A DNA stretch of 64,000 nt, taken from assembly GCA_947482665.1 (NCBI GenBank), contig CANKJK010000001.1, forward strand, positions 294,457-358,456. Reading direction: 5' to 3'. Positions 14,374 through 46,403 of the stretch are shown here, piece after piece. The position numbers and the translations under genes are program-made. The stretch is from Acidobacteriota bacterium. GTDB lineage: Bacteria > Acidobacteriota > Vicinamibacteria > Vicinamibacterales > UBA2999. The number at the start of each line of letters is the position of its first letter. Position 1 is the first letter of the stretch. Below the pieces are notes generated by a model, which saw only the letters and a program-made list of their open reading frames with translations, ran no database searches and was not told the origin of the DNA.

Positions 14374-16209
14374 TTAATCGACAGGAATCGTGAGCGTGCG
14401 GGACCCGGAGACGACGTAGTCGAAGGGAACATCCCAGTCGCCACTGAGCGTGCCGCCCACCCCCCGGAAGCTGCCCCCCTGACGGTCGCCCTCCATGACG
14501 GCGATGACCGATGCGGGAAGGGAGGAGAGCGATTCCCCGCGGACCACGGCACCCTGGTCGGGTTGCACGAAGCGGACGTAGAAGCGGTTGGCGTGCCGGA
14601 TCTCCGCGAGTGCCGCGAGCATCTGCGGCAGACTGCGCGTCTGGGCCGGAGAGGTGTCGCGTGGGTCGGCCTGCACCGTGCGCAGGGCGTCGGCCACGAG
14701 GATGGACACCGAGCCCTTCGCCTGAAGAGGAATCCGGATAGGGACAGTCCGGCTGATCGACTGGCCACGATAAGTACGAACGAGGAGCGTCACCGGCACC
14801 GTCTCGCCTGGCTTCACGCTCGGCCGGTCGATGCTGACCCGGTCGAGGATGGCCGTCCGGAGTTCCTCGGAGGCGGTGATGTTCAGTGTGACCGCGTCAA
14901 TCGCGATGGGCTCGTGCACGTTGCGGAGGAGCGTGGTGAGCGGGCCCATGATCGCGTTGCCCGCGCCCATCGGAGCCTGGTCCCCTGTGAACACATCGTC
15001 GATGACGACCTCGCCCCGGCCCTTGAGTACCGCGCGTCCATTGACCGTGTAGGTAGAGGCCCCCATCTGCCGCTGGTACGAGGTCAGCGTTTCGACGATC
15101 GTGAGATAGGTCATCAGCGGCGTGAAGAGCTGGTCGTGGGCTACCTGCATGCGGAAGCTGCGGGTGGCGCCGGCGGCGGTGAGGTTGATCGCCACCGGGA
15201 TCAGCGCCGGGCCAGGACCGAGGCGGCCGGCGACGGCCGTGGCGCGGTCCTGGGAGATGGTACCGATGACGGCGCCGGTGCTGGCGATCTTGATCGAGTT
15301 CTGCAGGCTCGGGAGCAGCGCGTGGACGTACGCGCGGGTCATGGGAAACGCCGTGGGGCCCAGGTTGTAGAAGGGATGCCCGAACGCATACACGGTGGAG
15401 CCGTCGACCTCGGTGACGGTTCCCGTGGCACCGACCTCGAGGTCGCCGCTCACCATCGTGATGCCGAGCGGGTCGCCAGGCCGAAGTGCCGGGGCGGGTG
15501 TGGACGTGGATGGCGTCTGAGCCGCGCCCGTGCCGGTCATCGCGGGCAGGAATCCGGCGGCATGAAAGAGCGACTCGAGCGGCGCCACGGTGGAAGCCGA
15601 GAATCCGCCGAGGCCGAGTGGCGTGGCGATGGGCCGCAGCATCGCCCCGAGAGCGGCCAGTGAGCCGGGGGTGCCGGCCGCCGGTTCGGCGTCAAACGGG
15701 GAGTGTGCGAACGGTGTGAGGGAGGCGAAGGCCTCGCGCACATCGGTGAGCGGGTCGTCGATGCCCGCGCCGCGGGGCACCCGGGCCGCAGCGAGCCGTC
15801 GGCGGGGCGTGTCGAGCGCGGCGTCCGCGATCATTTCCTCGATGGGAGTAATGCCGGCAATCGGCTCCTTCGCGAACGAACCGAGGGAATACGCCACGGC
15901 GCCCACGAGACGTCCGTCGATGTAGACGGGGCTGCCACTCATGCCTGCGATGACGCCCGTGTTGGCCAGCGGCCCACCCTCAAGGCGCGCCAGAATCAAC
16001 GTCCGCTGCGGGCCCATCACATTCCGGAGCACGCCAAGAATGTGGACCGTGAAGGATTCGAGCCGGGTGCCGGCAAAGACGGTCCGGCCCTCTGCCGTCA
16101 TGCCAGCCTTGACCTCGTCGACCGGGAACAGGCGCGAGGCGGCGGGCAGCGAGGCGCCGCAGCAGAGAGCAAGAGCGCAGAACAGGGCCAGGCCCCGGAG
16201 GTGCCGCAT
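14374..16209 (-). CDS. SpoIVB-like peptidase (family S55), exported
   Basis: GVIAGMSGSPVYIDGRLVGAV serine motif, GTVT...AFGHPF histidine motif, N-terminal signal peptide. Confidence 0.85.
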   Translation of the reverse strand: MRHLRGLALFCALALCCGASLPAASRLFPVDEVKAGMTAEGRTVFAGTRLESFTVHILGVLRNVMGPQRTLILARLEGGPLANTGVIAGMSGSPVYIDGRLVGAVAYSLGSFAKEPIAGITPIEEMIADAALDTPRRRLAAARVPRGAGIDDPLTDVREAFASLTPFAHSPFDAEPAAGTPGSLAALGAMLRPIATPLGLGGFSASTVAPLESLFHAAGFLPAMTGTGAAQTPSTSTPAPALRPGDPLGITMVSGDLEVGATGTVTEVDGSTVYAFGHPFYNLGPTAFPMTRAYVHALLPSLQNSIKIASTGAVIGTISQDRATAVAGRLGPGPALIPVAINLTAAGATRSFRMQVAHDQLFTPLMTYLTIVETLTSYQRQMGASTYTVNGRAVLKGRGEVVIDDVFTGDQAPMGAGNAIMGPLTTLLRNVHEPIAIDAVTLNITASEELRTAILDRVSIDRPSVKPGETVPVTLLVRTYRGQSISRTVPIRIPLQAKGSVSILVADALRTVQADPRDTSPAQTRSLPQMLAALAEIRHANRFYVRFVQPDQGAVVRGESLSSLPASVIAVMEGDRQGGSFRGVGGTLSGDWDVPFDYVVSGSRTLTIPVD

Positions 16210-16256
16210 CGCGAATCCGTTATAGGAAGAATACCGGCAAACTGCAAGCCGACCGG

Positions 16257-16286
16257 TTGACGCCCCGGCGCGGCGTGGGGTAACGT
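16257..16286 (+). promoter_or_regulatory. Putative sigma70 promoter of the aro/trp operon
   Basis: TTGACG (16257-62), 18-nt spacer, TAACGT (16281-86), just upstream of the leader peptide. Confidence 0.65.
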
Positions 16287-16302
16287 CTCCCCAGTTCACG
16301 CG

Positions 16303-16377
16303 ATGTCACACACGCTCTCTTTTGCGGTGCGCCCTGCCTTCACCAGCTCCTGGTGGCGGTACTGGTGCGCGGCTTAA
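16303..16377 (+). CDS. trpL: Attenuator leader peptide MSHTLSFAVRPAFTSSWWRYWCAA (24 aa)
   Basis: Manual translation; TGG TGG CGG TAC TGG cluster, followed by antiterminator and terminator, ahead of the trp genes. Confidence 0.88.
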   Translation: MSHTLSFAVRPAFTSSWWRYWCAA

Positions 16378-16427
16378 GAGGCGGGTTCATCGTCTGATTC
16401 CAGTCGATTTCCACGACGAGTTTCGAG

Positions 16428-16467
16428 CGCCTCTTCAGCCCCAGGGTTGAAGAGGCGTTTCTGTTTT
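16428..16467 (+). terminator. Intrinsic attenuator terminator
   Basis: 13-bp stem CGCCTCTTCAGCC / GGTTGAAGAGGCG (one G-U pair), 4-nt loop, followed by TTTCTGTTTT. Competing AAGAGGCG at 16376-83. Confidence 0.88.
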
Positions 16468-16486
16468 AGGCGGGATTGAGGAGGGG

Positions 16487-17938
16487 ATGACACGCCCGTT
16501 GCTGTGTGAAACCGTGACCGGGTCGACGCTTGCTGAGCTGCGAGCGGCCCGTGACGCCTCGACCGGGGCGGACATGGTGGAGCTGCGCCTGGACGGGGTT
16601 GCGGATCTTGACGTGGCCGGTGCGTTGGCCGACCGCCGGACACCCGTGGTGGTCACATGCCGGGCCTCGTGGGAGGGTGGACGATTCGATGGGTCCGAGG
16701 AGGATCGGCGCCGGATCCTGACCGAGGCGCTCGCCCGCGGCGCGGATTATGTCGACGTGGAGTGGAAGGCCGGGTGGGACGACCTGGTTCGCCACGAAGG
16801 CGGGCGTCGGATTGTGCTTTCGCATCATGACTTCGAGGGGATGCCCTCTGATCTTGAAGCGCGGCATCGTGCGATGCGGGCGACGGGCGCGGGCATCGTG
16901 AAGCTGGCCGCCACCGTGACGCGGGTGCGCGAGACGCTGCGGTTTCTCCCGCTCACCGCCGATGGGGTGACCATCGCGATCGGGATGGGGGCGGCAGGCG
17001 TGCCGACGCGGCTCCTCGCGGCACGGTTCGGGTCGGTGTGGACTTATGCGGGCCAGGGCGTGGCGCCGGGGCAGATGCCGGCAGCCGAGATGCGCGAGCG
17101 GTTCCGATTTGGAGAGGTGACGGCGACGACCGCTGTCTTCGGTGTTGCGGGGCGCCCGATCCTGCATTCGCTGTCGCCGGCGATGCATAACGCGGCGTTC
17201 CGTGCGGCGGGCATTGATGCGGTGTATGTGCCGATTGAGGCGGCAGACGCGGAGGACTTTCTGGCCTTTGCAGAGGGCCTGCCGATGGCCGGTGCCAGCG
17301 TCACCATTCCGTTCAAGCAGGACGTGATGGCGATGGCGACCGCCGTCGATCCCGACGCCGCGCTGATCGGTGCGGTGAACACCATCCGGCGGGAGGGAGC
17401 CGGCTGGGCGGCGACCAATACCGACGTGGCAGGGTTCCTCGCGCCGCTTGAGCGACGGGCGCACCTTCAGGGGTGGGCGCTGGCCGGGGCGCGGGTGGCG
17501 GTCATGGGCGCTGGCGGCGCGGCACGGGCCGTCGTCCGTGGTGCCGGCCGTGCGGGTGCAGCGGTGACGGTACACGCCCGGCGGCCCGAACAGGCTGACG
17601 CGGTTGCTCAGGGGCTGGGCGCCGCCGTGGGGAGTTGGCCCCCGGCGCCCGGCTCGTGGGATGTCCTGGTGAACTGCACGCCGGTGGGGAATCTCCATTC
17701 GGTCGAGGAATCGCCCTTGCCGGGCGGACCCTTTGAGGGGCGGCTGGTCTACGACCTGATCTACGCGCCTCGGGAGACGCGCCTGCTGCGCGAGGCGAAG
17801 GCGGCGGGGTGTGACACCCTCGACGGGTTGCCGATGCTGGTGGCGCAGGCTGAGGAGCAGAGCCTGTGGTGGACGGGCCGTCGGGTTCCGACGGGCGTAA
17901 TGGGGCGGGCCGTGGGACTTGGCGGCGAGGACGCGTGA
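16487..17938 (+). CDS. aroDE: Bifunctional type I 3-dehydroquinate dehydratase / shikimate dehydrogenase (AroD-AroE fusion)
   Basis: VELRLD, EGGRF, SHHDF, IVKLA, APGQ (AroD); then HSLSPAMHN, SVTIPFK, GAVNT, NTDVAG, GAGGAARA, DLIY (AroE). Confidence 0.93.
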   Translation: MTRPLLCETVTGSTLAELRAARDASTGADMVELRLDGVADLDVAGALADRRTPVVVTCRASWEGGRFDGSEEDRRRILTEALARGADYVDVEWKAGWDDLVRHEGGRRIVLSHHDFEGMPSDLEARHRAMRATGAGIVKLAATVTRVRETLRFLPLTADGVTIAIGMGAAGVPTRLLAARFGSVWTYAGQGVAPGQMPAAEMRERFRFGEVTATTAVFGVAGRPILHSLSPAMHNAAFRAAGIDAVYVPIEAADAEDFLAFAEGLPMAGASVTIPFKQDVMAMATAVDPDAALIGAVNTIRREGAGWAATNTDVAGFLAPLERRAHLQGWALAGARVAVMGAGGAARAVVRGAGRAGAAVTVHARRPEQADAVAQGLGAAVGSWPPAPGSWDVLVNCTPVGNLHSVEESPLPGGPFEGRLVYDLIYAPRETRLLREAKAAGCDTLDGLPMLVAQAEEQSLWWTGRRVPTGVMGRAVGLGGEDA

Positions 17939-19401
17939 TGCGACTGACAAGCTACGAGGAATTCGCCGAACTGGCCCGGCAGGGCACGTTCGTACCGGTG
18001 TGCAAGGAGATCGTGGCCGATCTGCTCACCCCCGTCTCCGCGTTTCTGAAGATTGCGGAAGACGCCGACCACGCGTTTCTGCTCGAGTCGGTGGAGGGCG
18101 GCGAGCAGGTGGCGCGCTACTCGTTCCTGGGCAAGGACCCGTTCATGGTCCTCAGATCCCGCGGCGGCCGCACGCTGATTCAGCAGGGCGGTACCCGCAG
18201 CGAATCGGAACGGCCCTTCTTCGAGGTGCTGCGCGAGGTGATGGCGGGCTATCAGGCCCCCTTCGTCAAGGGCCTGCCGCGCTTCACCGGGGGCGCTGTC
18301 GGCTACCTCGGATACGACACCGCCGCGTGGTTCGAGCCGGTGCCTCTGGTGCCGTCGGTCGATGAGGATGATGCCGGTTTCATGCTGTTTGAGACGGTAC
18401 TGGCGTTTGATCACGTCCGGCACCGGATTCTCATCATCGCGAACGCACGGATTGCTCCGGGCGATGACCTTCGGGCGCAGTACGACTTCGCGTGCACGCG
18501 AATCGGTTTCGTGGAGCGGGAACTCGAGCGGAGCCTCTCGCACCAGGCGCCAGCCCATGGCGGGGCGCTCGACGTGCAGTCGAACATGTCGCAGGTGGAC
18601 TACGAGGTGATGGTGCGCACCGCGAAGGAGCACATCGCCGCCGGGGACATCTATCAAGTTGTGCTCTCGCAGCGTTTCGAAACGGCGATCAAGGCCGACG
18701 CGTTCACGGTCTACCGTGCGCTCCGGCACGTGAATCCGTCGCCCTATATGTATTTCCTCCGGATGGGCGGGCGCTCGATCGTCGGTGCGTCACCCGAGAT
18801 GCTCGTCAGAGTGGAAGGGCGAACAGCGCAGACGCACCCGATTGCCGGCACGCGGCCGCGTGGGAAGTCAGAGGTGGAGGACGCCGCTCTTGCCACGGAG
18901 TTGCTGGCGAGCGAGAAGGAGCGTTCCGAGCACGTGATGCTCGTTGATCTGGGTCGCAACGATTTGGGACGGGTGTGCGAGTACGGCACCGTCCATGTGC
19001 CCCGATACATGGCGATCGAGCGGTACTCCCACGTGATGCACCTCGTGTCCGTGGTGGAGGGCACGCTGGCCGCCGGGAAGGATCGCCTCGACGCGCTCGC
19101 GTCCTGTTTTCCGGCGGGCACCGTGTCCGGCGCTCCCAAGGTGCGGGCCATGGAGATCATCAACACGCTTGAGCGGGACCGTCGTGGGGTCTACGCCGGT
19201 GCGGTCGGGTACCTGGACTTCGCCGGCAATCTCGACTGCTGCATCACCATCCGCACAGTCGTGATGGAGCATGGCCTGGCGAGGGTGCAGGCGGGCGCGG
19301 GCATCGTGGCGGACTCGGACCCGGCCGCGGAGTATCAGGAGACCCGGGACAAGGCGCGGGCCGTGCTGAGCGCGCTCGAACTGGCCGAGGCAGGACTGTG
19401 A
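17938..19401 (+). CDS. trpE: Anthranilate synthase component I
   Basis: FLLESV, NPSPYM, PIAGTRPRG, EHVMLVDLGRND, FPAGTVSGAPK. TGATG coupling to aroDE. Confidence 0.96.
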   Translation: MRLTSYEEFAELARQGTFVPVCKEIVADLLTPVSAFLKIAEDADHAFLLESVEGGEQVARYSFLGKDPFMVLRSRGGRTLIQQGGTRSESERPFFEVLREVMAGYQAPFVKGLPRFTGGAVGYLGYDTAAWFEPVPLVPSVDEDDAGFMLFETVLAFDHVRHRILIIANARIAPGDDLRAQYDFACTRIGFVERELERSLSHQAPAHGGALDVQSNMSQVDYEVMVRTAKEHIAAGDIYQVVLSQRFETAIKADAFTVYRALRHVNPSPYMYFLRMGGRSIVGASPEMLVRVEGRTAQTHPIAGTRPRGKSEVEDAALATELLASEKERSEHVMLVDLGRNDLGRVCEYGTVHVPRYMAIERYSHVMHLVSVVEGTLAAGKDRLDALASCFPAGTVSGAPKVRAMEIINTLERDRRGVYAGAVGYLDFAGNLDCCITIRTVVMEHGLARVQAGAGIVADSDPAAEYQETRDKARAVLSALELAEAGL

Positions 19402-19411
19402 GGGCGGCGTC

Positions 19412-19977
<566 letters not shown>

Positions 19978-19978
<1 letters not shown>

Positions 19979-21003
19979 TGTCGACGCTCGCCCCCCTCAT
20001 TGAGAAGCTGATGCGCCGCGAGGACCTCTCCTCGACGGAGACGGCGGCTGCGATGGAAGAGGTGATGGCCGGTCGCGCGGTGCCCGCGCAACTGGCGGGA
20101 TTCCTCGTGGCGTTGGCCATGAAGGGGGAGCGCCCGGCGGAGATCGTCGGCCTCGCACGGACGATGCGCGCCCAGGCCGTCCCGGTTCTGCGGGCGGCGG
20201 GTGATGTGTTTGATACCTGCGGCACGGGCGGTGATCGCGCCGGCACGTTCAATATCTCGTCCGCGGCGGCTGTCGTCGTGGCCGCATGCGGCGTGAAGGT
20301 GGCGAAGCACGGCAACCGGTCGGTCTCAAGCCGCTGCGGCAGCGCGGATGTCTTCGAGGCGCTGGGTGTCCGCGTGGACGCGTCACCGGACACGGTGGGC
20401 AGGTGCCTCGACGAAGCGGGTATCGCGTTCTTCTTCGCGCCCACGTTCCATCCGTCGATGCGGCATGCCGCGGCGACACGGAAGGAACTGGGCCTCAAGA
20501 CCGCCTTCAACATGCTGGGCCCGCTGACCAATCCGGCTGGTGCGACCAGGCAGATCGTGGGTGTGCCGCGCGCGGAGTGGACAGAGCTGATGGCGCTGGC
20601 ACTCGGGCAACTCGGCAGCCGGCGCGCCTGGGTGGTGCACGGCGCGGACGGGCTCGACGAGATCTCAACGACCGGGCACACCCGGGTGGCGGAATGGCGT
20701 GACGGCGAAGTGCACAGCTTCTTCCTGCATCCAGGGGACGCCGGACTGGCGACGGCTGCTCCGGAGTCGCTGGCCGGCGGTGATGCGGCCGAGAACGCGG
20801 CGACGATCCGGCGCGTGCTGGACGGCGAGTCAGGACCGGCGCGCGATGTCGTGGTGCTGAACGCGGGAGCGGGCCTACTGGTCGCGGGCGCGGTCCACAC
20901 GCTGGTGGAGGGTGTGGCGCGCGCGTCGCAGGCGCTTCACGAGGGTGCGGCGCGGCGGACGCTGGCCGAGATGGCGCGCCTGTCCCAGGAGGTGAGGCCA
21001 TGA
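19978..21003 (+). CDS. trpD: Anthranilate phosphoribosyltransferase
   Basis: DTCGTGGD, NISS, KHGNRSVSSRCGSAD, GLDE. Confidence 0.96.
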
Positions 21004-21800
21004 CCGCGGGCACTCCCGATCTGCTCCAGGCGATTGTGGCCGCGACCGCGCGGACCATTGAGACACGCCGGCAGGAGGAGCCTGACGCGGCCCTCGAGGC
21101 GCGGGCGATGGCGGGGCGGGTGCCGCGGGGCGATCTGTTCGAGGCGGCGCTCGGGCGCGCCGGACGCGTCAACGTGATTGCCGAGTGCAAACGTCGGTCG
21201 CCGTCGAAGGGGATTCTCGCGGCCGACTACGACCCGGTGGCTATTGCCCGTGCCTACACCGAAGGGGGCGCGGCGGCGATCTCGGTCCTGACCGAGCCCT
21301 CGTTTTTCGATGGAGCGTTGGCGCATCTGGCTGCCGTCCGGCCAGCCACGCCCCTGCCGTTACTGCGGAAGGACTTCACGATCGACCGGTATCAACTGCT
21401 CGAGGCACGGGCAAACGGGGCAGATGCCATTCTGCTCATCGTGGCGGCCCTCGATCAGGCCACACTGGTACGTCTGCAGGCGCAGGCCTGGGCCCTCGGG
21501 CTGGCGGTGCTCGTCGAGGTCCACGACGAGGCCGAACTGGAACGGGCCGTGGCCGCAGAGGCCCGGCTGATCGGCGTCAATAACCGGAATCTGCGGACGC
21601 TCGCGGTGGACGTGGAGGCCTCGCGGCGTTTGTCCGTGCGCATGCCCGCGTCGGCCATCGGCGTCAGCGAAAGCGGGCTGTCGTCCGTCGAGGAGCTTCG
21701 GGCCCTGTCCGCGCTGGGCTACCGGGCGTTCCTGATGGGCGAGCGTTTCATGACCGACGCCAACCCGGCCAGGGCCATTGCCGCGATGGTGGGTGCGTGA
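21000..21800 (+). CDS. trpC: Indole-3-glycerol phosphate synthase
   Basis: IAECKRRSPSKG, ISVLTE, LRKDF, GVNNRNL, SESG. Confidence 0.96.
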   Translation: MTAGTPDLLQAIVAATARTIETRRQEEPDAALEARAMAGRVPRGDLFEAALGRAGRVNVIAECKRRSPSKGILAADYDPVAIARAYTEGGAAAISVLTEPSFFDGALAHLAAVRPATPLPLLRKDFTIDRYQLLEARANGADAILLIVAALDQATLVRLQAQAWALGLAVLVEVHDEAELERAVAAEARLIGVNNRNLRTLAVDVEASRRLSVRMPASAIGVSESGLSSVEELRALSALGYRAFLMGERFMTDANPARAIAAMVGA

Positions 21801-22414
21801 CGTTTGTAAAGGTCTGCGGCATCACGCGCGAGGACGACGCGCGCGCGGCACTGACCGCGGGCGCGACCGCGTTGGGGTTCGTGTTCTGGCCGAAGAGTCC
21901 GAGGGTGGTCACGGCGGAGCAGGCCGGCGCCATCATCGGAGCCTTGCCGTATGGGACCAATGCCGTTGGGGTCTTCGTGAACCAGTCGGTGGAGGAGATC
22001 GACCGGGTCGTGCGGACTGCCGGGCTGACGGCCGTGCAGTTACACGGCGATGAATCGCCCGTCGCTCTTCCCGGGATCCACAGGCCGGTCCTCAAGGCCG
22101 TGACGCTGGAGGGTGCGAACGAGGCGCTGGAGACCTGGCCCGACTCGGTGTTGCTGCTGCTGGATGCCCACGATCCGGTGAAACGGGGCGGCACCGGACA
22201 GGCGGTGGATTGGGCCGGCGCGGCCCGCGTTGCCGCGCGGCGGCCGATCGTGCTCGCCGGAGGGCTGCGGCCCGACAACGTGCGGGAGGCGATCGAGACG
22301 GTCCGGCCCTTCGGTCTGGATGTGTCGTCAGGGGTGGAGGACGCCCCGGGAGTGAAGAGCGTGCGAAAGTTGACGGAGTTCTTCGAGATGGTGAGGTCCG
22401 CTGATGGCCGGTGA
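21797..22414 (+). CDS. trpF: Phosphoribosylanthranilate isomerase
   Basis: [35 protein letters not shown]. Confidence 0.96.
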
Positions 22415-23630
22415 AGCAGGACGCGTCGGGCGCCGTGACCCGGATGCCAGGGGCTACTTCGGGGCCTACGGAGGCCGTTTCGTACCTGAAACCCTTGTCG
22501 CGCCGATTGAGGAGCTGACCGAGGCGTATTTCGCGGCGCGCGGCGAGGAAGCGTTCCAGCGCGAACTGGACGACCTGCTGGCGCACTACGTGGGTCGGCC
22601 CACGCCGCTCTACGAGGCGACGAGGCTTGCGGCATCGGTTGGGAACGCGCGAATCTTCCTGAAGCGCGAGGACCTGACCCACACAGGCGCGCACAAGATT
22701 AATAACGCCCTTGGCCAGGTGCTGCTGGCGAAGCGGATGGGCAAGCGCCGCATTGTCGCGGAGACCGGGGCGGGCCAGCACGGCGTGGCGACGGCGACGG
22801 CCTGCGCGCTGCTCGGGCTGGAGTGTCATGTCTACATGGGCGCCGACGATATGGTGCGGCAGGCGCTCAACGTCGTGCGGATGGAACTGCTTGGCGCGAC
22901 CGTGCGGAAGGTGACCGCTGGCAGCCGGACGTTGAAGGACGCCATCAGCGAAGCCATGCGGGACTGGGTCACCAACGTCACCGACACGTTCTACGTGCTC
23001 GGCTCGGCGCTGGGACCGCATCCCTATCCGTTGATGGTGCGGGAATTTCAGGCCGTCATCGGTCGCGAGGCGCGCGCGCAGGTGCTTCGGCAGGCGGGCC
23101 GCCTCCCGGACCTCGTGGTGGCGTGCGTCGGCGGCGGCAGCAACGCCATCGGCATCTTCGATGGGTTCATCGACGACGCGTCGGTGCGCCTAATTGGTGT
23201 TGAGGCCGGTGGAGAGGCGATCGAGCCCGGCCGCCACGCGGCGAGGTTCGATGGCGGCAGCACGGGCGTGCTGCAGGGCACGCGCACCTTCGTGCTGCAG
23301 GACCCGGCCGGGAACATCGAACTCACGCACTCGATTTCGGCAGGGCTCGACTATGCAGCCGTGGGACCGGAACATGCCTGGCTGCGCGAGATCGGCCGGA
23401 CCGAGTACGCGCACGTCAGTGACGCGGAGGCGCTCGACGGCTTCAAGGCGCTCGCGAGGCTGGAAGGCATCATCCCGGCGCTGGAGTCGTCGCACGCCAT
23501 CGCCCACGCGATGAAGCTCGCCCCAGGACTGCCGCAGGGGACCGTGATGGTGGTGAATCTGTCTGGGCGGGGCGACAAGGACGTGCAGAGCGTCTCCGCC
23601 GTGCTAGCGGCCGCGGAGGCGCGCTCATGA
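22404..23630 (+). CDS. trpB: Tryptophan synthase beta chain
   Basis: [47 protein letters not shown]. Confidence 0.98.
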
Positions 23631-24412
23631 GCCGTATCGCGGCAGCATTCGCCCGCCTCAAGGCGGAGGGCCGCACGGGCCTGGTGACGTTCGTAACCGC
23701 CGGAGACCCTTCGCTGGAGCACTCGGCCGAGATCCTCATGGCGGCCGACCGCGGCGGTGCGGACGTGCTCGAAGTCGGCGTGCCCTTCTCCGAGCCTCTG
23801 GCCGATGGTCCCGTGATCCAGCGGGCGACGGAACGGGCGCTGGCCGCGGGCACGACGCTCGATGGCGTGCTCACCATGGTGGCGGGGGTCCGGAGCCGCC
23901 TGCGGGCGCCGGTGGTTCTCTTCAGCTACGCCAACCCGATTCTGCGGATGGGTGTCGAGGCCTTTGCCGAACGGGCGGCCTCGGCTGGGGTGGATGGGGT
24001 CCTGATGGTCGATCTACCGCTCGAAGAAGCGGGGGACTGCCGGGCCGTCTACGAATCCCGCGGGATTGATACAATTTTCCTGCTGAGCCCCACGACAAGC
24101 GATCGTCGGATTCGGCAGGCCTCAAGTCTGGGTAGTGGTTTTCTGTACGCGATTTCGCGGCTGGGGGTCACCGGGTCCCGTGACACGCTGGCGGACGGGG
24201 CCGAAGCGATCGTGGCCCGGATCCGGGCCGCGAGCCAGTTGCCGGTTGCAGTGGGTTTCGGCATCTCGAAGCCGGAGCATGTGCACGAAGTGGGAAAGTG
24301 GGCGGACGCGGCCGTGGTCGGCAGCGCCCTGGTGAACCTGATCGCTGAGTCCGGGACGGCGCCGGATCTTCCGGCGCGTGTCGAGGAGTATGTGCGGTGG
24401 CTGAAGGACTGA
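23627..24412 (+). CDS. trpA: Tryptophan synthase alpha chain
   Basis: [36 protein letters not shown]. Confidence 0.97.
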
Positions 24413-24696
24413 CAATCGAGGAACTCCGGGGGCGCATCGATGTGATCGATGACCAACTGGTGCGTCTGCTGAATGTGCGGGTGGCGTGCGCGGTGGAAGT
24501 GGGACGGCTGAAGCAGGCACAGGGCCTGCCGGTCTATCAGCCCGATCGCGAGAAGCAGGTGCTGGGCCTGGTGCAGGAACGCGCCACGACCCTTGCCGGT
24601 CCGCTGAATGCGGATGCGGTGGTCAGGATTTTTGAACGGGTGATGGATGAATCCCGTCGGGCCGAACGCCGCGCGGCGGACGGCGACGAGACATAA
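24397..24696 (+). CDS. Chorismate mutase (AroQ class, monofunctional)
   Basis: [22 protein letters not shown]...VGRLK...VYQPDRE. Confidence 0.9.
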
Positions 24697-24706
24697 GGGG
24701 CACGTC

Positions 24707-25744
24707 ATGGTTGTGGTGATGCAGGAACGGGCGAGTGAAGCCCAGATTGATGCGGTTATTGCCAAGATCGTCGGGCTCGGGATGGACGTGCACCGCTCGT
24801 CGGGTGCCACGCGGACCGTGCTCGGGGTGGTCGGGGCGCACAAGGTGGACCCCGATTTGCTCCGGATTCTCGACGGAGTGAAGGACGTGGTGCGGATCAG
24901 CGAGCCGTTCAAGCTCGCGAGCCGGACCTTCAAACAGAGCGACACCGTGATTTCGATCGGTGACGTGAAGATCGGCGGAGACGAGGTCATCGTGATGGCC
25001 GGTCCGTGCTCTGCCGAGAACCCCGCACAGGTGGACGCCACGGCCGCTGCCGTCAAGCGCGCCGGCGCGAAGATTCTGCGCGGGGGTGCATTCAAGCCGC
25101 GCAGTTCCCCGTACAGCTTCCAGGGCCACGGCGAAGCCGGGCTGCAGATGCTGCGCGAGTCGGGTGATAAGTACGGCCTGAAGGTGATCTCCGAGGTGAT
25201 GGACGTCAGTCAGATCGAGCTGATCGGCCGCTACTGCGACATCTATCAGGTCGGAGCGCGCAACATGCAGAACTTCACGCTGCTGCGTGAGCTCGGCAAG
25301 ACGCGCAAGCCCGTCATGCTCAAGCGCGGGCTGTCGTCGACGATCGAGGAGTGGTTGATGTCGGCGGAGTACATCCTCTCCGGCGGCAACTCGGATGTGA
25401 TGCTCTGCGAGCGCGGCATCCGGACCTTCGAGACCGCCACGCGGAACACGTTTGACGTCTCCGCGATTCCGGTCGTGAAGAAGCTGAGCCACCTGCCTGT
25501 CATCGCGGACCCAAGTCACGGTGCGGGACGCCGGGACATGGTCGCGCCGATGGCGCGTGCGGCCGTGGCCGCCGGTGCGGACGGGCTCATCATCGAGGTG
25601 CACAATGATCCCGACCGGGCGCTCTCGGACGGGGCGCAGTCGATGTTCCCGGAGCAGTTCGACCGGTTGCTGTCGGAGCTGCGGATCATCGCACCGGCCA
25701 TTGGCCGGAGCATCTGCCTCGACCCGCCCGCGACGCGCCGCTAA
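24707..25744 (+). CDS. aroF: DAHP synthase type I-beta with N-terminal ferredoxin-like/ACT regulatory domain
   Basis: [42 protein letters not shown]. Confidence 0.93.
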
Positions 25745-25762
25745 GGCAGGCCGGGCGGTTGC

Positions 25763-26677
25763 ATGGCTGAGAACCCGACGGGCCGGGCCCTGCCGATGGT
25801 GCAGGCGAGAGACCTGACGCCGGATCCGGTGTTCGAGCGGATCGGGATCGTCGGTCTCGGGCTCATCGGGGGGTCGATTGCGCTCGCGGCCCGCGCCCGC
25901 TGGCCACGGGGGCTGGTGATTGCCGTGGATCGGAAGGACGTCCTCGAGCAGGCGATGCTCCGCCATGCCGTGGATGTGGCCGCCGATGACCTCTCCATTC
26001 TCGCGGGCGCGGATCTGGTCATTCTCGCCGCGCCGGTTTTGGAGAACGTCCGTCTCCTCGCGGAGCTGCCGCGGCATCTGGCCGGGCCGGCGATCGTGAC
26101 GGACGTCAGCAGCACGAAGGCGGCCATCGTTGAGGCCGCGCGCGTGCTCCCTGCAGGGCTCCGTTTTGTCGGCGGGCATCCGATGGCAGGGGCGGCGGTG
26201 GGCGGCTTCGGACACGCGAGGCCGGATCTTTTCCAGAACCGGCCATGGCTGCTGACGCCCGACGCGACGATCCCGCCCGAGGTTGTGCAGCAGCTCTCGG
26301 CCTTCGCCGAAGGGTTGGGGAGTGCCGTGTCGACGCTGACCCCGTCGGAGCACGACCGGTTGCTGGCGGCGCTGAGCCACCTACCCCAGCTCACCGTAAG
26401 TGCGCTGATGGCGGTGGTGGGCGCGGAGGCTGGAGAGGCGGGGCTGGCGCTGGCCGGCCGCGGCCTCGTGGATACGACGCGGCTCGCCTCGAGCCCTGCC
26501 GATGTGTGGCGCGATATCGCGTCGACAAACGCTGAGCAGCTCGGCCGGGTGCTGGACGCGCTGATCGCGCGTCTGACGCATCTCCGCCAGGGGCTCGACG
26601 ACGGCCAGGCGCTTGAGGCCACGTTTGAAGAGGCTGCCCGTTGGCGGGCGGCGTTGATGAAGGATCGAACCAGTTAG
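25763..26677 (+). CDS. tyrA: Prephenate/arogenate dehydrogenase
   Basis: [24 protein letters not shown]...SHLPQ, TRLASS...W. Confidence 0.92.
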
Positions 26678-26699
26678 ACCTGTTCCCAGAGGAGTCACG

Positions 26700-27896
26700 A
26701 TGTCGAAGTACGAGCCTGCTGTCATTCTGAGCGCCGTCCGCACCCCCATCGGATCATTCGGTGGATCGCTGAAGGACCTGTCCGCCGTGGACCTGGGTGC
26801 GATCGTGGTCCGCGAGGCGCTCTCGCGCGCGGCCGTGCAGGGCAGTGACGTGGGCGATGTGATCCTGGGCTGCGTGCTGCAGGCCGGTAACGGCATGAAT
26901 GTCGCGCGTCAGGTGTCCCTCAAGGCGGGTCTGCCGCAGGAGGTGCCGGCCGAGACGATCAATCGCGTCTGCGGTTCAGGCCTTCAGGCCGTTGCGCACG
27001 CGGCCGAGGCGACGCATCTTGGGTATTCCGAGGTTGTCGTCGCCGGTGGTACCGAGTCGATGACCAACGCGCCGTACATCCTGAAGGGCGCACGCTGGGG
27101 CTACCGGATGGGGAATGCCGAAGCCGTCGACATCATGGTCGGCGAGGGGCTGACCTGCGCGCTGGAGCAGTGCCACATGGGCATCACGGCCGAGGAAGTC
27201 GCGAAGCGCTGGAACATTAGCCGCGAGGACCAGGACGCCTTCTCCGCCGAGAGTCAGCGGCGTGCCGTGGCCGCCGTCGAAGGCGGACTCTTTGCAGACG
27301 AGATCATCCCGGTCACGATTCCCCAGCGCAAGGGCGACCCCGTCGTCTTCTCGAAGGATGAGTTCCCGCGCGCGGGGACGACCGCGGACAAGCTGGCGGC
27401 GCTGCGACCTGCGTTTACGAAGGAGGGTTCGGTCACCGCGGGAAACGCCTCGGGCATCAACGATGGCGCCGCGGCGCTGATCGTGGCCTCCGCGGCGAAG
27501 GCCTCTGCGCTCGGTCGCGCGCCACTGGCGCGCATCCTGTCGTTTGCCACGGTGGGTGTTGAGCCGAAGGTCATGGGTATCGGTCCGGTGCCGGCGGTCC
27601 GCAAGGCCCTTGAGCGCGCGGGCCTCACGATGGCGGACATCGATCTGTTCGAGCTCAATGAGGCGTTTGCCTCGCAGTCACTGGCGGTGGCGCGTGAACT
27701 GAAGGCGGACGCGGCGCGCGTCAACGTGCGTGGCGGGGCCATCGCTCTCGGTCATCCCATTGGTGCCAGCGGCGCGCGCGTGCTGACCACGCTCATCTAT
27801 GCGCTTCGCGCGCAGGGCGGCGGAAAGGGTGTCGCAGCGCTGTGCATTGGCGGCGGGCAGGGCATCGCGATGGTCGTTGAGGTGCCGAAGGCCTGA
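26700..27896 (+). CDS. atoB: Acetyl-CoA C-acetyltransferase (thiolase)
   Basis: [42 protein letters not shown]. Confidence 0.93.
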
Positions 27897-27929
27897 CGGC
27901 GCTGCGTGATCGGGGCCCGGCGCCGAAGA

Positions 27930-27978
27930 GCCCCATGCTGGCGTGCTCGCCCTCACCGGGTGGCGCGCAGCATGGGGC
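27930..27978. repeat. Long inverted repeat between convergent genes (possible terminator or REP-like element)
   Basis: GCCCCATGCTG (27930-40) pairs perfectly with CAGCATGGGGC (27968-78); no U-tract. Confidence 0.55.
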
Positions 27979-28031
27979 GTCTCGTGAGGAGGCGCTAGGG
28001 TCTGGTCACTGCCGAGGCTGCGGTCGGCCGC

Positions 28032-29207
28032 TTAGGTACGGCGGGAACGGCTCAGGACCGACTCGACGCGCGCCATGACGACCGGCCAGCGATACTCCCG
28101 GTCGACGTAGTCCCGACCTGCCGCCCCGAGGGTATGGGCCTCCGCCTCGTGGGTTAGCAGGTAGGACAACGATTCCGAGAACTCGAGCGGAGACCGGTAG
28201 GCGAGACCACCGCCGGCGCGGTGTACCTGGCCCGCAAGGACGCGGCACTGACCGTTGACGAGCGCGGGCACGCCGCGATTCCACCCCTCGAGGAGCGCGA
28301 TGCTGAGGCTCTCAAAACGCGAGGGGACGGCAAGCAGTGTCGCGTGCGCGAAGAGCGCATCGCGAACCTCGGCTGAGACGAAGCCAAGACTCCTGATCCG
28401 GCTGTCAGTCGGCAAGGGCTCGGCCCCTGGACCGGCGAAGACGAGCGTCGTGGGCTGACCACCCTGCGCGAGGTGTTCCAGGAAGAGTGCGGCGAGCGTA
28501 TGCGCGCCTTTGTTCCGGTCGACGCGTCCAAGGCAGAGCACGTACTGCTCGGGGAGTCCGAGGGCGTCAAGCGGTGCCCGATCAGGCGTCGTCCCTGCTG
28601 GTTCGATGCCGATGCCACTGACGGCCGTGACCGGAAGGGCTCGCCCCGCACTCGTTTCCACGAGCGTCTGTTCCTCAGGCGTCATGAACAGATAACCGGC
28701 CGGACGTGAAAACAGCGCCTCGAGTTGACCGAGCCGGATGGCGGGATCCTCCTCGGCAGTCGGGACGAGAATCGCCCGATTCGCCACGTGCGGCAATCCG
28801 AAGTAGGACGGGTAGTAGCGGAACGTGAAGAAGAGTACCCGGTCGTACCGCGAACCCTCGGCGCGGAGATGCTCGACCAGTGCCGGGACCTGGGGACCAT
28901 TCTCGCGAAACCACTCGTCCTCGAGGTCCGGAGACACCGGATCAGGTCCGAAGACGGCGTCGCTCAGATCACGAAACCGCCCGGCCTGGCGTTCGCGCAG
29001 GACGGGAAAGCGTCTGACTGTGACACCGCGCTCCTGTGTCACGCCGGCCGGGACCGCATTGGCCCAGGTGAGGTAGTCGCGGGCGCAGGAGGTGAGAACC
29101 GTGACGTCGTGGTGTGCGGACAACCGCTCTGCGTATTCCCGGCAGAGCGCTTCAGAGCCGCCTGCGATGTCGGCGCCGTAGCGTTGAACGACGAGGGCGA
29201 GCTTCAC
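28032..29207 (-). CDS. Glycosyltransferase family 4 (GT-B fold)
   Basis: VVQRYG...GGSE, LGRVDRNKG, PSRFESLSIALLE (E-x7-E motif). Confidence 0.9.
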   Translation of the reverse strand: MKLALVVQRYGADIAGGSEALCREYAERLSAHHDVTVLTSCARDYLTWANAVPAGVTQERGVTVRRFPVLRERQAGRFRDLSDAVFGPDPVSPDLEDEWFRENGPQVPALVEHLRAEGSRYDRVLFFTFRYYPSYFGLPHVANRAILVPTAEEDPAIRLGQLEALFSRPAGYLFMTPEEQTLVETSAGRALPVTAVSGIGIEPAGTTPDRAPLDALGLPEQYVLCLGRVDRNKGAHTLAALFLEHLAQGGQPTTLVFAGPGAEPLPTDSRIRSLGFVSAEVRDALFAHATLLAVPSRFESLSIALLEGWNRGVPALVNGQCRVLAGQVHRAGGGLAYRSPLEFSESLSYLLTHEAEAHTLGAAGRDYVDREYRWPVVMARVESVLSRSRRT

Positions 29208-40651: not shown

Positions 40652-41055
40652 CAGGCGTCCTCCGGGCCGCCCTCGCGGGCGTGCCAGAAGCGGGTCTCGA
40701 CCTCCTCGATCTCCTCTTCGCTCATCCCGAAATAGTGACCGACCTCATGGAGGAGGGTCTCCGCGATGATGATGCGCACGTCGTCGGCGTCGGCGGCATC
40801 CTCCTCGATGGGCTGTTGGAAGAGCGTGATGTGGTCGGGTAGCCGGTTGCCATCGTCCCAGTGGCGCTCGGGCAGGGGAGTGCCGCTGTAGAGCCCATAG
40901 AGCGAGTCGGGGGGCTCGACCTCCATCTCCTCGAGGAGAGACGCTGAGGGATGGTCCTCGATGACGACGGCGAGGTTCGTCATCGCCCGGCGGAACCGGG
41001 CAGGGATGAGCGCCACCGCCTCCTCAGCGAGCCGTGCGAACTCGGCGTGGGTCAC
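40651..41055 (-). CDS. Minimal zincin-like metallopeptidase (Zincin_1)
   Basis: LYGLYSG.P, PDHITLF, ETLLHEVGHYFG. Confidence 0.85.
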   Translation of the reverse strand: MTHAEFARLAEEAVALIPARFRRAMTNLAVVIEDHPSASLLEEMEVEPPDSLYGLYSGTPLPERHWDDGNRLPDHITLFQQPIEEDAADADDVRIIIAETLLHEVGHYFGMSEEEIEEVETRFWHAREGGPEDA

Positions 41056-44289: not shown

Positions 44290-46403
44290 GCGGGGGAGGG
44301 ACTCCGCCTGTCGACCCGCTGGCGCTTCGGCTGCAGTTCCTGAAGGGCGTGGGGCCGCGCAAGGCGGCGGACTTCGCGAAGGCCGGTCTCGAGACGGTCG
44401 AGGATCTGCTGTATCGCCTGCCGTTTCGGTACGAAGACCGCTCGCGCATGCGACCGGTGCGCTCCTTGAAGCCAGGGGAGCGGGCGGCCGTGTCGGGGAC
44501 GATCATCAGCGCGCATCTGCTCCGGACGCGCCGGCGCGGCTTCACCATCTTTCATGCCGTCCTGAGCGACGCGAGCGGGTCGATTCGCTGCACGTGGATG
44601 AACCAGCCGTTTCTGGCCGACGTCCTCGTGCCGCAGCTGTCCGTGGTCATTTTCGGCGACGTGCGTCTCGACTCCAGCGGCCTGCACTTTCTGAATGCGG
44701 AATATGAGGCCGTCGAGGCCGAGGACGCCGACGGGCGAACACCCCTCCGCACGGGCCGCATCGTGCCGTTCTATGAACGCACGGGCCAGGTCACACCGAA
44801 CATGCAGCGCCGGCTCGTGCGGGATGCCCTGGACCGATTGCCGCCAGTGCTGAGCGACCGGATCCCGCCTGAGGTCGTGGCGCGGGTGGGCCTGCCGGAT
44901 CGGCGCGAGGCATTTGAGGGAGCGCACTTCCCGCCGAATGAGGCGGATGTCGAGGCTCTGAACCAGTGCGCGACCGCCGCGCAGCGGCGTCTCATCTTCG
45001 ATGAGTTCTTTCTGTTTCAGGCGGGGCACGCCTGGCGCCGCCTGTCGCTCGCCGGTGAGTTGAAGCCCAGGCCGGTCGTGATGTCGGACGCGATTCGGGC
45101 GGCGGCCGCTCGCGTGCTGCCTTTCAAGCTGACGCCCGGACAGCGCACGGCCCTCAAGGAGATCGTCGACGACATGTGCCGGCCTGAGCCGATGCACCGG
45201 CTGTTGCAGGGGGACGTCGGTTCGGGAAAGACCATCGTTGCGTTGATCGCCGCGGTCGTCGCGATGGAGCACGGGCTGCAAGTGGCGTTCATGGCGCCGA
45301 CCGAGATCCTGGCCGGGCAGCACTATCGGAATATCGCGACGCTGCTGTCGCACTCACGCTTTCGCGTGGAACTGCTGACCGGAAGCACGCCGGCTCTCGA
45401 AAAGCGAGCGGCATACGCGAGCCTGGCGCGCGGGTCCACCCATCTGGTCGTCGGCACGCACGCCCTGGTGCAGGACGATGTGGCGTTCCGGGAACTGGGG
45501 TTCGTGGTCATCGATGAGCAGCACCGGTTTGGTGTCGCGCAACGCGCCGCACTGCGCGCCAAGGGCCTTCGGCCAGATGTCCTGTTGATGACGGCGACGC
45601 CAATTCCGCGCACGCTGGCCCTGACCGACTATGCCGAACTGGACGTATCGAAGATTCCGGATCGTCCACCGGGCCGCACGCCCATCACGACGCTGGTTCG
45701 GCCGGAGTCACGGCGCGATGAGGTGTATGCGCTTGTGCAGGCGCAGATCGCGGCGGGGCGTCAGGCCTATGTCGTGTATCCGCTCGTGGCCGAGTCCGAG
45801 AAGTCGGACCTGAAGTCGGCAACGGAGATGGCAGAGCACCTGCAGACCGAAGTGTTTCCGGCGTTCACCGTAGGCCTGTTGCATGGTCGGATGAAGGCCG
45901 ACGAGAAGGCGCAGGTGATGCAGGCGTTTCTGTCCGGACGGACGCATCTCCTGGTCTCCACGACCGTGATCGAGGTGGGCGTCGACGTGCCGAACGCGAC
46001 CGTCATGGTGATCGAGCACGCGGAGCGGTTTGGCCTGTCGCAGCTTCATCAACTGCGCGGGCGGGTGGGACGGGGCACACATGCGTCTACCTGTGTCCTG
46101 CTGTATCAATCACCGTGGACCGATGAGGCTCGGCAGCGGCTGCAGGCCATGCACGAGACCGATGACGGGTTCGTGATTGCCGAGCGCGACCTTGAACTGC
46201 GCGGACCCGGGGATTTCTTCGGCACGCGGCAGTCGGGCGTGCCGGCGCTGAGGACCGGAGACCTGGTGCGCGATCGGGACCTGATGGAACGGGCACATGC
46301 GGAGGCGCGGCAGGTCATCGCGGAGGCCCGTCTCCCGGAGTCGCTCGTGACATTCCTGCGAGACGAGTGGCCGGCGCGGTTCGGCTTCATCGAGGTGGGC
46401 TAG
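44286..46403 (+). CDS. recG: ATP-dependent DNA helicase RecG
   Basis: LKGVGP, wedge OB domain, QGDVGSGKT, DEQHRFG, TATPIPR, QLRGRVGRG, DGF.IAE.DL..RGPG. Confidence 0.97.
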   Translation: MSGGGTPPVDPLALRLQFLKGVGPRKAADFAKAGLETVEDLLYRLPFRYEDRSRMRPVRSLKPGERAAVSGTIISAHLLRTRRRGFTIFHAVLSDASGSIRCTWMNQPFLADVLVPQLSVVIFGDVRLDSSGLHFLNAEYEAVEAEDADGRTPLRTGRIVPFYERTGQVTPNMQRRLVRDALDRLPPVLSDRIPPEVVARVGLPDRREAFEGAHFPPNEADVEALNQCATAAQRRLIFDEFFLFQAGHAWRRLSLAGELKPRPVVMSDAIRAAAARVLPFKLTPGQRTALKEIVDDMCRPEPMHRLLQGDVGSGKTIVALIAAVVAMEHGLQVAFMAPTEILAGQHYRNIATLLSHSRFRVELLTGSTPALEKRAAYASLARGSTHLVVGTHALVQDDVAFRELGFVVIDEQHRFGVAQRAALRAKGLRPDVLLMTATPIPRTLALTDYAELDVSKIPDRPPGRTPITTLVRPESRRDEVYALVQAQIAAGRQAYVVYPLVAESEKSDLKSATEMAEHLQTEVFPAFTVGLLHGRMKADEKAQVMQAFLSGRTHLLVSTTVIEVGVDVPNATVMVIEHAERFGLSQLHQLRGRVGRGTHASTCVLLYQSPWTDEARQRLQAMHETDDGFVIAERDLELRGPGDFFGTRQSGVPALRTGDLVRDRDLMERAHAEARQVIAEARLPESLVTFLRDEWPARFGFIEVG

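Follow-up and report, generated by a model that had tools for sequence, protein, structure and literature searches.

A 64,000-nucleotide (nt) stretch of the genome of an Acidobacteriota bacterium from the order Vicinamibacterales (UBA2999; assembly GCA_947482665.1, contig CANKJK010000001.1, positions 294,457 to 358,456), referred to here at its full length as the window, carries what is very probably a ribosome-mediated leader-peptide transcription attenuator. By its sequence, the element would sense charged tRNA-Trp and control the operon aroDE-trpEGDCFBA-chorismate mutase-DAHP synthase-tyrA. The parts that define such a leader are found together ahead of aroDE: a small upstream open reading frame (ORF) with tryptophan (Trp) codons, a predicted intrinsic terminator, an antiterminator that excludes it, and a fitting spacing of stall sites and stop codon. 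A first-pass annotation had named a promoter (TTGACG-N18-TAACGT), a 24-amino-acid leader at 16303-16377 with three Trp, two phenylalanine (Phe), and one tyrosine (Tyr), a 13-bp terminator with a U-rich tail at 16428-16467, and a strand at the leader stop (16376-16383) that is identical to part of the terminator 3' arm and able to capture 16428-16435. It had read these as classical trp attenuation of an 11-gene aromatic unit. Each of these parts is present as claimed, and the comparisons with relatives described below bear the reading out. From this arrangement, we infer that the leader is translated, that the transcript starts at the predicted promoter and can end at the predicted site, and that the operon responds to Trp.

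In the proposed mechanism, a sigma-70-type promoter would start transcription, and read-through into the operon would be under attenuator control. As RNA polymerase transcribes the leader, a ribosome would follow and translate its 24 codons. Under a shortage of Trp-tRNA, this ribosome would stall with the TGG codon at 16351, 16354, or 16363 in its A site and its 3' edge short of AAGAGGCG. The free segment 2 (GGCT at 16371-16374 and AAGAGGCG) could then pair with the newly made CGCCUCUUCAGCC (16428-16440), and this antiterminator would remove the 5' arm of the terminator, allowing the polymerase to read on into aroDE. When Trp-tRNA is ample, the ribosome would reach the TAA at 16375-16377 and cover segment 2; segment 3 would then pair with segment 4 (16445-16457), and the U-tract (about 16458-16467) would end transcription. 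Where the RNA is not translated, or once the ribosome has been released, segment 1 (16313-16321) may hold segment 2, which would also favor termination.

The two alternative helices covary among relatives. This was determined in an alignment of 69 leaders (A2), made with MAFFT and not fitted to any structure. In the terminator, the 13 pairs are formed in 95.5% of 896 cells, and five of them have changed on both sides. The covariation score is 0.221 compared to 0.129 in shuffled alignments, a value reached in none of 500 shuffles, and registers slid out of place are 38-57% paired. A T-run stands behind the hairpin in all 69 aligned leaders. The antiterminator (columns 106-116 with 201-211, equivalent to window positions 16373-16383 with 16428-16438) behaves similarly, with its 11 pairs formed in 91.5% of 756 cells, four pairs changed on both sides, a score of 0.219 compared to 0.163 after shuffling (again reached in none of 500), and slid registers that are 42-56% paired. 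As an example of a compensatory change, leader L028 has CCGGAGAGG facing CCTCTCCGG, in the place where most leaders have CTGAAGGGG facing CCTCTTCAG.

The layout of the leaders follows the reach of the ribosome. Within eight codons, there are three Trp codons in 48 of the 69 leaders, two in 15, and four in six. The core of segment 2 starts 12-24 nt (median 18) past the last Trp codon, counted from the first base of that codon, and never nearer than 12. The 3' edge of a ribosome lies about 12 nt past the first base of the A-site codon, and a spacing of at least 12 nt appears to respect this footprint in all 69 leaders. In the window, stalls with 16351, 16354, or 16363 in the A site are predicted to free the RNA from about 16364, 16367, and 16376, respectively, and a ribosome at the stop codon is predicted to cover the RNA to about 16387, which takes in the whole of segment 2. 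In 67 of the 69 leaders, the stop codon falls inside segment 2 or 3-15 nt beyond it; it follows segment 2 by 6, 9, or 12 nt in 59, by 3 nt in one, and by 15 nt in one, and it overlaps segment 2 in six (the window, three genus-mates, L030, and L033). The exceptions are L070 and L085, with stops 27 and 66 nt past segment 2. At L085 (2330-2501), the usual stop has been lost, and the leader frame continues across the terminator and ends 17 nt upstream of aroDE.

The reading frame and the RNA leave separate marks on these leaders. In all 69 leaders, the frame that holds the Trp codons is free of stops across 24 codons; the other two frames are so in 49 and 24. Many leaders have an ATG 16 codons ahead of the first Trp codon; two members of the window's genus have ACG in place of this ATG and an in-frame GTG one codon upstream. 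Segment 2 is inside the ORF in 63 leaders and spans or follows the stop in six, the window among them, and its sequence is kept in both groups. Since the sequence is kept whether translated or not, the constraint must be on the RNA and not on the peptide. The RNA sequence of the switch region as a whole is highly conserved among the leaders.

The arrangement was followed into relatives by scanning for AroDE proteins in one genome per species, where 141 pattern matches were reduced to 88 confirmed and 80 kept, giving 79 loci that are nearly all titled Vicinamibacterales, Acidobacteria, or Acidobacteriota. Once the loci without usable upstream DNA were left out (L021, L027, L049, L063, L066, L072, and L084), 72 remained, and 68 of these have the attenuator arrangement upstream of aroDE. 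What they share is a small ORF with a Trp run, followed by a GAAGGGGCG-like strand, then CGCCTCTTCAGCC...GGTTGAAGAGGCG, and a T-run, with the promoter as a further part of the architecture. The four loci without it are L073, L080 and L081 (both titled Bacteroidota), and L083 (titled Planctomycetota). L073 holds a second aroDE-like copy, and neither leader nor terminator lies upstream of it; the same metagenome-assembled genome (MAG) holds L029, with a full attenuator. Five MAG records titled "uncultured Bifidobacteriaceae bacterium" (L009, L033, L075, L078, and L087) carry an aroDE of the Vicinamibacterales type (at most 81% identity) with the leader, and their titles look wrong.

A covariance model (R1) was built from the 69 leaders; its 5' limit is 15 nt ahead of the Trp run, and at the 3' side it takes in the first bases of the T-tract. 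It finds one real copy in the window's own genome. Of the genomes sampled in the order, 143 of 151 have a match at E <= 1e-5; they represent 79 of 80 genera and every one of the 19 families scored. Among 151 genomes sampled from across the phylum, all 10 other genomes of the same order are matched (E <= 1.5e-13), and the one genome of the same class but another order is not. Outside the order, the model gives three weak matches over its full length, in genomes G149, G084, and G106; the other eight weak matches take in only the 3' part of the model, mostly the terminator alone. The match in G106 was rejected as spurious, as no trp gene follows it. In G149 (L104, 1468-1620), MFETRIKSNAISAKYSWWWYSSAFCGS and a terminator stand directly before trpE, and in G084 (L105, minus strand), MNNLFTNSWWWHSSDKGGERPPG and a terminator stand directly before trpEGD; both genomes belong to Acidobacteriota families outside the order. 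The G084 leader has GGAG ahead of its ATG and a promoter of the form TTGACC-N17-TACAAT. The genes that follow are trpEGDCFBA in G084, and trpE, D, C, F, B, and A with DAHP synthase in G149. These two leaders are genuine relatives or analogues of the Vicinamibacterales element, whether by homology or by convergence.

The predicted promoter is part of the same conserved block. Upstream of the leader start, the motif TTGnnn-N16-19-TAnnnT is found at the matching place in 65 of the 67 leaders examined (L051 and L052 are outside that set), most commonly in the order as TTGACA-N17/18-TAnnGT, and the window's own motif does not vary in the genus alignment. The distance from its 3' end to the leader start codon is 5-40 nt, with 16 nt in the window and 9-26 nt in 62 of the 65 leaders that have the motif. 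A simple promoter scan of the window does not list this promoter because its -10 hexamer is too far from TATAAT; its conservation, and not the scan, is what supports it as a putative promoter. The -10 of the conserved promoter is of the type TAnnGT (TACTGT, TACAGT, TATCGT, TACGCT) and not TATAAT, behind a near-perfect TTGACA and 17-18 nt, and these TAnnGT-type promoters may serve as a sample of the promoter form in the order. On the other side of the promoter is a divergent gene (minus-strand ORF 14374-16299, with the Met of MRHLRGLALF... as its likely start); being divergent, it leaves the leader hairpin with no convergent gene to terminate.

The folding of the window's leader agrees with the two-helix arrangement in part. 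The region 16290-16480 folds at -92.6 kcal/mol (z = -6.2), with none of 200 shuffles equally stable. The terminator stem has 13 pairs as read and 16 (16425-16460) in a terminator scan. In the antiterminator, the pairing of GGCT at 16371-16374 with AGCC at 16437-16440 is added to the core, for 12 pairs with one U-C mismatch (GGCU.AAGAGGCG with CGCCUCUU.AGCC). With 16370-16441 folded alone, the antiterminator comes to -28.4 kcal/mol compared to -28.1 for the terminator. The first-pass annotation had put forward folding with ribosome-footprint constraints as a check, and its outcome is divided: with the 3' arm omitted (16303-16441), the free RNA folds into the antiterminator, but folds of the full RNA at equilibrium keep the terminator in every case, ribosome masks included. 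As the terminator always wins at equilibrium, the switch has to be kinetic, which is beyond what folding shows. The masks used were also simple and, unphysically, allowed helices to close around the ribosome.

Besides the equilibrium folds, other points count against an attenuator of this kind. When the third Trp codon (16363) is in the A site, the ribosome would cover GGCT at 16371-16374 and leave only an 8-pair core of the antiterminator. A Shine-Dalgarno core is found 4-16 nt upstream of the leader start in just three of 67 leaders, and the predicted 5' untranslated region (UTR) in the window is only about 9-10 nt; the short 5' UTR comes about because the conserved promoter ends 5-40 nt before the start codon. 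Also, the aligned leaders are kin, and for this reason, the shuffle counts overstate independence. The slid controls, in which relatedness is retained, agree with the shuffle result for both helices.

The remaining difficulty concerns a hairpin between segments 1 and 2, for which the evidence is mixed. The first-pass annotation held that no separate 1:2 hairpin is needed; on paper, the two-helix model is indeed sufficient, but the minimum free energy (MFE) fold of the window does contain a long 1:2 hairpin. At its base, AAGAG-GCG (16376-16383) is paired with CGC-U-CUCUU (16313-16321), and the Trp codons are near its tip. The window leader up to segment 2 folds at -44.1 kcal/mol (z = -3.0 compared to a shuffled upstream part). 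Across the family, at least six of the eight core bases of segment 2 pair with the region before the Trp codons in 55 of 69 leaders, compared to 57% (1574 of 2760) in the controls, which were leaders with a dinucleotide-shuffled upstream part. The position of the upstream partner varies among leaders, and RNAalifold on the leader region of the 69 sequences gives 0 consensus pairs, so a column-conserved 1:2 helix could not be demonstrated. An apical hairpin spanning the first two Trp codons (in the window, CACCAG/CUGGUG) was rejected as unsupported, being 67.9% paired compared to 67.0% after shuffling. A 1:2 anti-antiterminator is likely in the window's genus, going by the predicted folds, and unproven as a feature of the family across the order.

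Two other explanations for the leader need to be considered. The hairpins could act without translation, in a leader that binds a protein or a ligand (TRAP-like, T-box-like, or an unknown riboswitch) and in which the Trp codons are incidental. The high conservation of the switch-region RNA would suit such a leader, as would the missing Shine-Dalgarno core in 64 of 67 leaders. Yet every one of the 69 leaders has its TGG run in a frame that is open, the spacing from Trp to segment 2 is quantised by codons and never falls below 12 nt, and searches for the known types of such a leader came up empty: a search of 4227 Rfam families, including T-box and Trp_leader, on both strands of 15500-28500 gave 0 matches at E <= 1; TRAP (TrpBP, PF02081) has no match in the 97.5%-complete genome, with a control search finding TRAP in Bacillus subtilis; and there is no (G/U)AG repeat array in the window. 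An untranslated switch is, on this evidence, very unlikely.

Less likely still is that the small ORF encodes a trans-acting peptide and that the hairpin is its plain terminator, with unregulated read-through into the operon. A trans-acting role is described for the trp leader peptide of Sinorhizobium meliloti in the available text of PMC7298713, and such a role would not exclude attenuation. The peptide here is poorly conserved outside its cluster of Trp and Tyr, the conserved 3' part follows the RNA pairing and not the reading frame, and a plain terminator needs no conserved, covarying competitor helix. The in-frame Trp runs, the codon-quantised spacing, and the covarying competitor helix are explained neither by an untranslated switch nor by a trans-acting peptide.

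The attenuator reading can be extended to a second amino acid. The first-pass annotation had suggested that the leader integrates more than one aromatic amino acid, and it had proposed a conserved cluster of Trp, Tyr, and Phe codons in relatives as a check. The cluster of Trp and Tyr codons is conserved along with the covariation, but Phe is not part of it: a Phe codon is beside the Trp run in 10 of 69 leaders and shows no Tyr-like pattern, so that the Phe half of the idea is not supported by the alignment. The Tyr half survives as a tentative proposal. In a dual Trp/Tyr attenuator, a shortage of either Trp-tRNA or Tyr-tRNA would stall the ribosome short of segment 2 and open the operon. The Trp run contains or directly adjoins a Tyr codon in 66 of the 69 leaders, and TAT as well as TAC is used. 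Tyr is the commonest residue at the codon before the first Trp, in 37 of 69 leaders (TAT 26, TAC 11), and it occupies the third codon after the first Trp in 44 of 69 (TAT 25, TAC 19). That Tyr is kept while its synonymous codon varies points to selection on codon meaning. With the window's Tyr codon (16360) in the A site, the ribosome is predicted to end at about 16372, leaving AAGAGGCG free, and the operon holds tyrA and common-pathway genes.

Other features argue against Tyr sensing, which is perhaps possible but doubtful. Several cognate codons are usual in leaders that respond to an amino acid other than Trp, and the leaders here have one or two Tyr codons each, never a run. Shared ancestry, or some other constraint around the TGG codons, could give the same Tyr pattern. 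The two leaders from other families divide on this point. That of G149 has Tyr on both sides of its Trp run (YSWWWY) and precedes trp genes and DAHP synthase, with no tyrA within 14 kb, while that of G084 has none (SWWWH) and precedes trpEGDCFBA only.

The features of the window are collected in the table below. The 11-gene unit claimed by the first-pass annotation is confirmed by Pfam and by its conservation. A GAGGAGG precedes the ATG of aroDE. The stop and start codons overlap as TGATG at aroDE/trpE (17936-17940) and trpG/trpD (19976-19980), which suggests translational coupling at these two junctions; the remaining junctions are overlaps of 4-16 nt or gaps of 10-18 nt. The ORF list offers longer GTG-started frames for trpE and trpD, which are probably not real starts. 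By Pfam, the N-terminal domain of the DAHP synthase is an FXD domain and not a chorismate mutase. A scan across the operon gives five terminator-like sites, the leader hairpin among them, compared to 4.8 expected from shuffles, and internal sites of this kind are thus not in excess.

To study conservation of the operon, the 14 kb that follow the attenuator were taken from 10 genomes of the order; one of these loci (L116) is cut by a contig end. All 11 genes are present in identical order in eight of the nine complete relatives. In L107, the aroDE match spans residues 5-269 only, and L109 is without chorismate mutase and DAHP synthase. In the window, a thiolase gene with its own GAGGAG (26700-27896) follows tyrA by 22 nt. 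Thiolase occurs within the 14 kb in just two of nine relatives, at least 1.3 kb beyond tyrA, and since it is not adjacent to tyrA there, it probably does not belong to the conserved unit. The window scan found no terminator-like site after tyrA or after the thiolase gene.

Table. Features of the putative attenuator and of the operon behind it (window coordinates)
Feature	Position	Strand	Remarks
Promoter	-35 TTGACG 16257-16262; -10 TAACGT 16281-16286	+	Predicted, read from sequence; spacer 18 nt
Leader ORF MSHTLSFAVRPAFTSSWWRYWCAA	ATG 16303 to TAA 16375-16377	+	24 codons + TAA; 3 W, 2 F, 1 Y; unannotated
Regulatory codons	TGG TGG 16351-16356, CGG, TAC (Tyr) 16360-16362, TGG 16363-16365	+	
Segment 1, CGC-U-CUCUU	16313-16321	+	Possible anti-antiterminator strand; predicted partner 16376-16383 (MFE folds)
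Segment 2, GGCTTAAGAGGCG	16371-16383	+	Antiterminator 5' strand; overlaps leader stop codon; partner 16428-16440
Segment 2 core, AAGAGGCG	16376-16383	+	Identical to part of terminator 3' arm; complementary to 16428-16435
Segment 3, CGCCTCTTCAGCC	16428-16440	+	Terminator 5' arm; common to antiterminator and terminator
Terminator loop	16441-16444	+	
Segment 4, GGTTGAAGAGGCG	16445-16457	+	Terminator 3' arm
U-rich tail, TTTCTGTTTT	16458-16467	+	
aroD-aroE fusion (aroDE)	16487-17938	+	Type I 3-dehydroquinase + shikimate dehydrogenase; first structural gene; Pfam DHquinase_I, Shikimate_dh_N, SDH_C
trpE	17938-19401	+	Pfam
trpG	19412-19978	+	Pfam
trpD	19978-21003	+	Pfam
trpC	21000-21800	+	Pfam
trpF	21797-22414	+	Pfam
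trpB	22404-23630	+	Pfam
trpA	23627-24412	+	Pfam
Chorismate mutase	24397-24696	+	Pfam CM_2; 99 aa; 16-nt overlap with trpA end
DAHP synthase	24707-25744	+	Start ATG 24707; N-terminal ferredoxin-like (FXD) domain; Pfam DAHP_synth_1, DAHP_snth_FXD
tyrA (prephenate dehydrogenase)	25763-26677	+	Last conserved gene of unit; same place in relatives; Pfam PDH_N, PDH_C

The trp leader may have company in this genome. A rough scan of the genome for a hairpin and T-run followed by a gene gave 164 sites; at 109 of these, a gene starts no more than 160 nt away. Four more candidate leaders came out of it, all of them outside the window. One is an isoleucine (Ile)-rich candidate leader, ...GIIRISIMSIPGFISSPGYGG, with six Ile codons in 13 and a terminator (G000:C1 ~40700-40905, plus strand, locus L119), before a gene for a thiamine pyrophosphate (TPP) enzyme of the acetolactate-synthase type by Pfam. 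It has the same build as the trp leader, in that the 5' arm of its terminator, CATCATCCACC, is complementary to GGTGGATGATG, which overlaps the leader stop. Two divergent cysteine (Cys)-rich candidates, MVPTLCPCACCCCPRPCEGSRARGL and MFLTACPACCCPISVRLRAVSVCPCN, each with a terminator, lie on both strands at G000:C1 ~46030-46400 (locus L120), one before a gene with a PAPS_reduct domain and the other before a TauE/SafE gene; they resemble the cysteine leaders that have been reported in mycobacteria. A threonine (Thr)-rich candidate, MFSVIATTTTGCRT... (four Thr codons and one Ile), stands with a terminator before homoserine dehydrogenase (G000:C6 ~237310-237480, minus strand, locus L121) and is a candidate thr-type attenuator. 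Rfam gave no match on five other loci, namely the three with these four candidates and the two trp leaders from other families, and no leader was found upstream of hisG in the window's genome.

These four further candidates suggest that leader-peptide attenuation may be a general habit of the lineage. A broader picture can be drawn with some hesitation, as it is rather less likely to be right than wrong: a two-signal Trp/Tyr leader matching the common pathway, the Trp branch, and tyrA, and forming one of a set of leader-peptide attenuators in the genome (Trp, with candidates for Ile, Cys, and Thr). If true, leader-peptide attenuation would be a general regulatory habit of Acidobacteriota that is in no database yet.

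Acidobacteriota are abundant in soil and fresh water, and little is known of their gene regulation. The mechanism of the attenuator is itself familiar to specialists; the element is apparently new for the phylum, near-universal in its order, and absent from Rfam. In keeping with the first-pass annotation, which knew of no characterised attenuator in this lineage, a search of the full-text literature turned up no report of a trp attenuator from Acidobacteria or Vicinamibacter (subscription journals and supplements were not covered). In the available text of Naville and Gautheret 2010 (PMC2965389), the predicted attenuators of Acidobacteria are almost without assigned function, and the leader-peptide systems then known are placed in Proteobacteria and Actinobacteria only, with the authors' own cases in Firmicutes. 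What the window offers is a concrete cis-regulatory element that can be put to the test, that occurs almost throughout one order without matching any Rfam family, and that adds a small ORF and an RNA element to the annotation. The element would also explain why the genes of the unit, from aroDE through the trp genes and chorismate mutase to DAHP synthase and tyrA, stay together. Its alignment and covariance model could seed a new RNA family, and the conserved Tyr codons make the reading of two amino acids by one leader open to a simple test.

Among the closest known systems is trpL of Escherichia coli, in which a short leader ORF carries adjacent Trp codons, the terminator and antiterminator share a strand, and the position of the ribosome decides between them. 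The element described here has the same parts, with a Trp-codon leader ORF, an intrinsic terminator before the first structural gene, a strand-sharing antiterminator, and a choice of helix that would be set by the ribosome. It differs in having no sequence or profile similarity to trpL (no Rfam match at E <= 1) and in its two to four Trp codons, which are usually flanked by Tyr. The Trp codons are also near the apex of the predicted leader hairpin and not inside segment 1, the antiterminator strand is inside the 3' end of the ORF in most relatives, and the unit has aroDE at its head and chorismate mutase, DAHP synthase, and tyrA at its end.

In the aromatic supra-operon of B. subtilis, the Trp-activated RNA-binding protein TRAP chooses the leader helix. 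As in the window, trp genes there stand among aro and tyr genes in one long unit, and the leader chooses between terminator and antiterminator; the window's genome differs in that it has a leader peptide, no TRAP gene or triplet repeats, and another gene order. If the Tyr codons are functional, the leader would also be like thrL (Thr and Ile codons) and ilvL (Ile, leucine, and valine) of E. coli, in which one leader integrates amino acids whose enzymes share an operon. Those multi-amino-acid leaders have many codons of each amino acid, compared to the one or two Tyr codons here, where Tyr sensing is hypothetical.

Attenuators of the trp genes are also described in other high-GC and soil bacteria. 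The available text of PMC4833913, which cites the first description of the E. coli trp attenuator, includes actinobacterial examples in the trp leader of Corynebacterium glutamicum and the trpE leader of Streptomyces venezuelae. These share with the Vicinamibacterales element a high-GC genome, a Trp-codon leader peptide, and the classical attenuation logic, and they stand before trpE; they are set apart by phylum and gene set, and no homology to them was detected, though their sequences were not directly compared. The soil bacterium S. meliloti has, according to the available text of PMC7298713 and bioRxiv 10.1101/864512, a ribosome-dependent trpE(G) attenuator with the upstream ORF trpL. Unlike the S. 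meliloti attenuator, which in these sources controls trpE(G) alone and whose leader peptide has a role in trans, the element in the window, likewise ribosome-dependent as proposed and upstream of trp genes, would place the whole aromatic unit from aroDE to tyrA under one leader.

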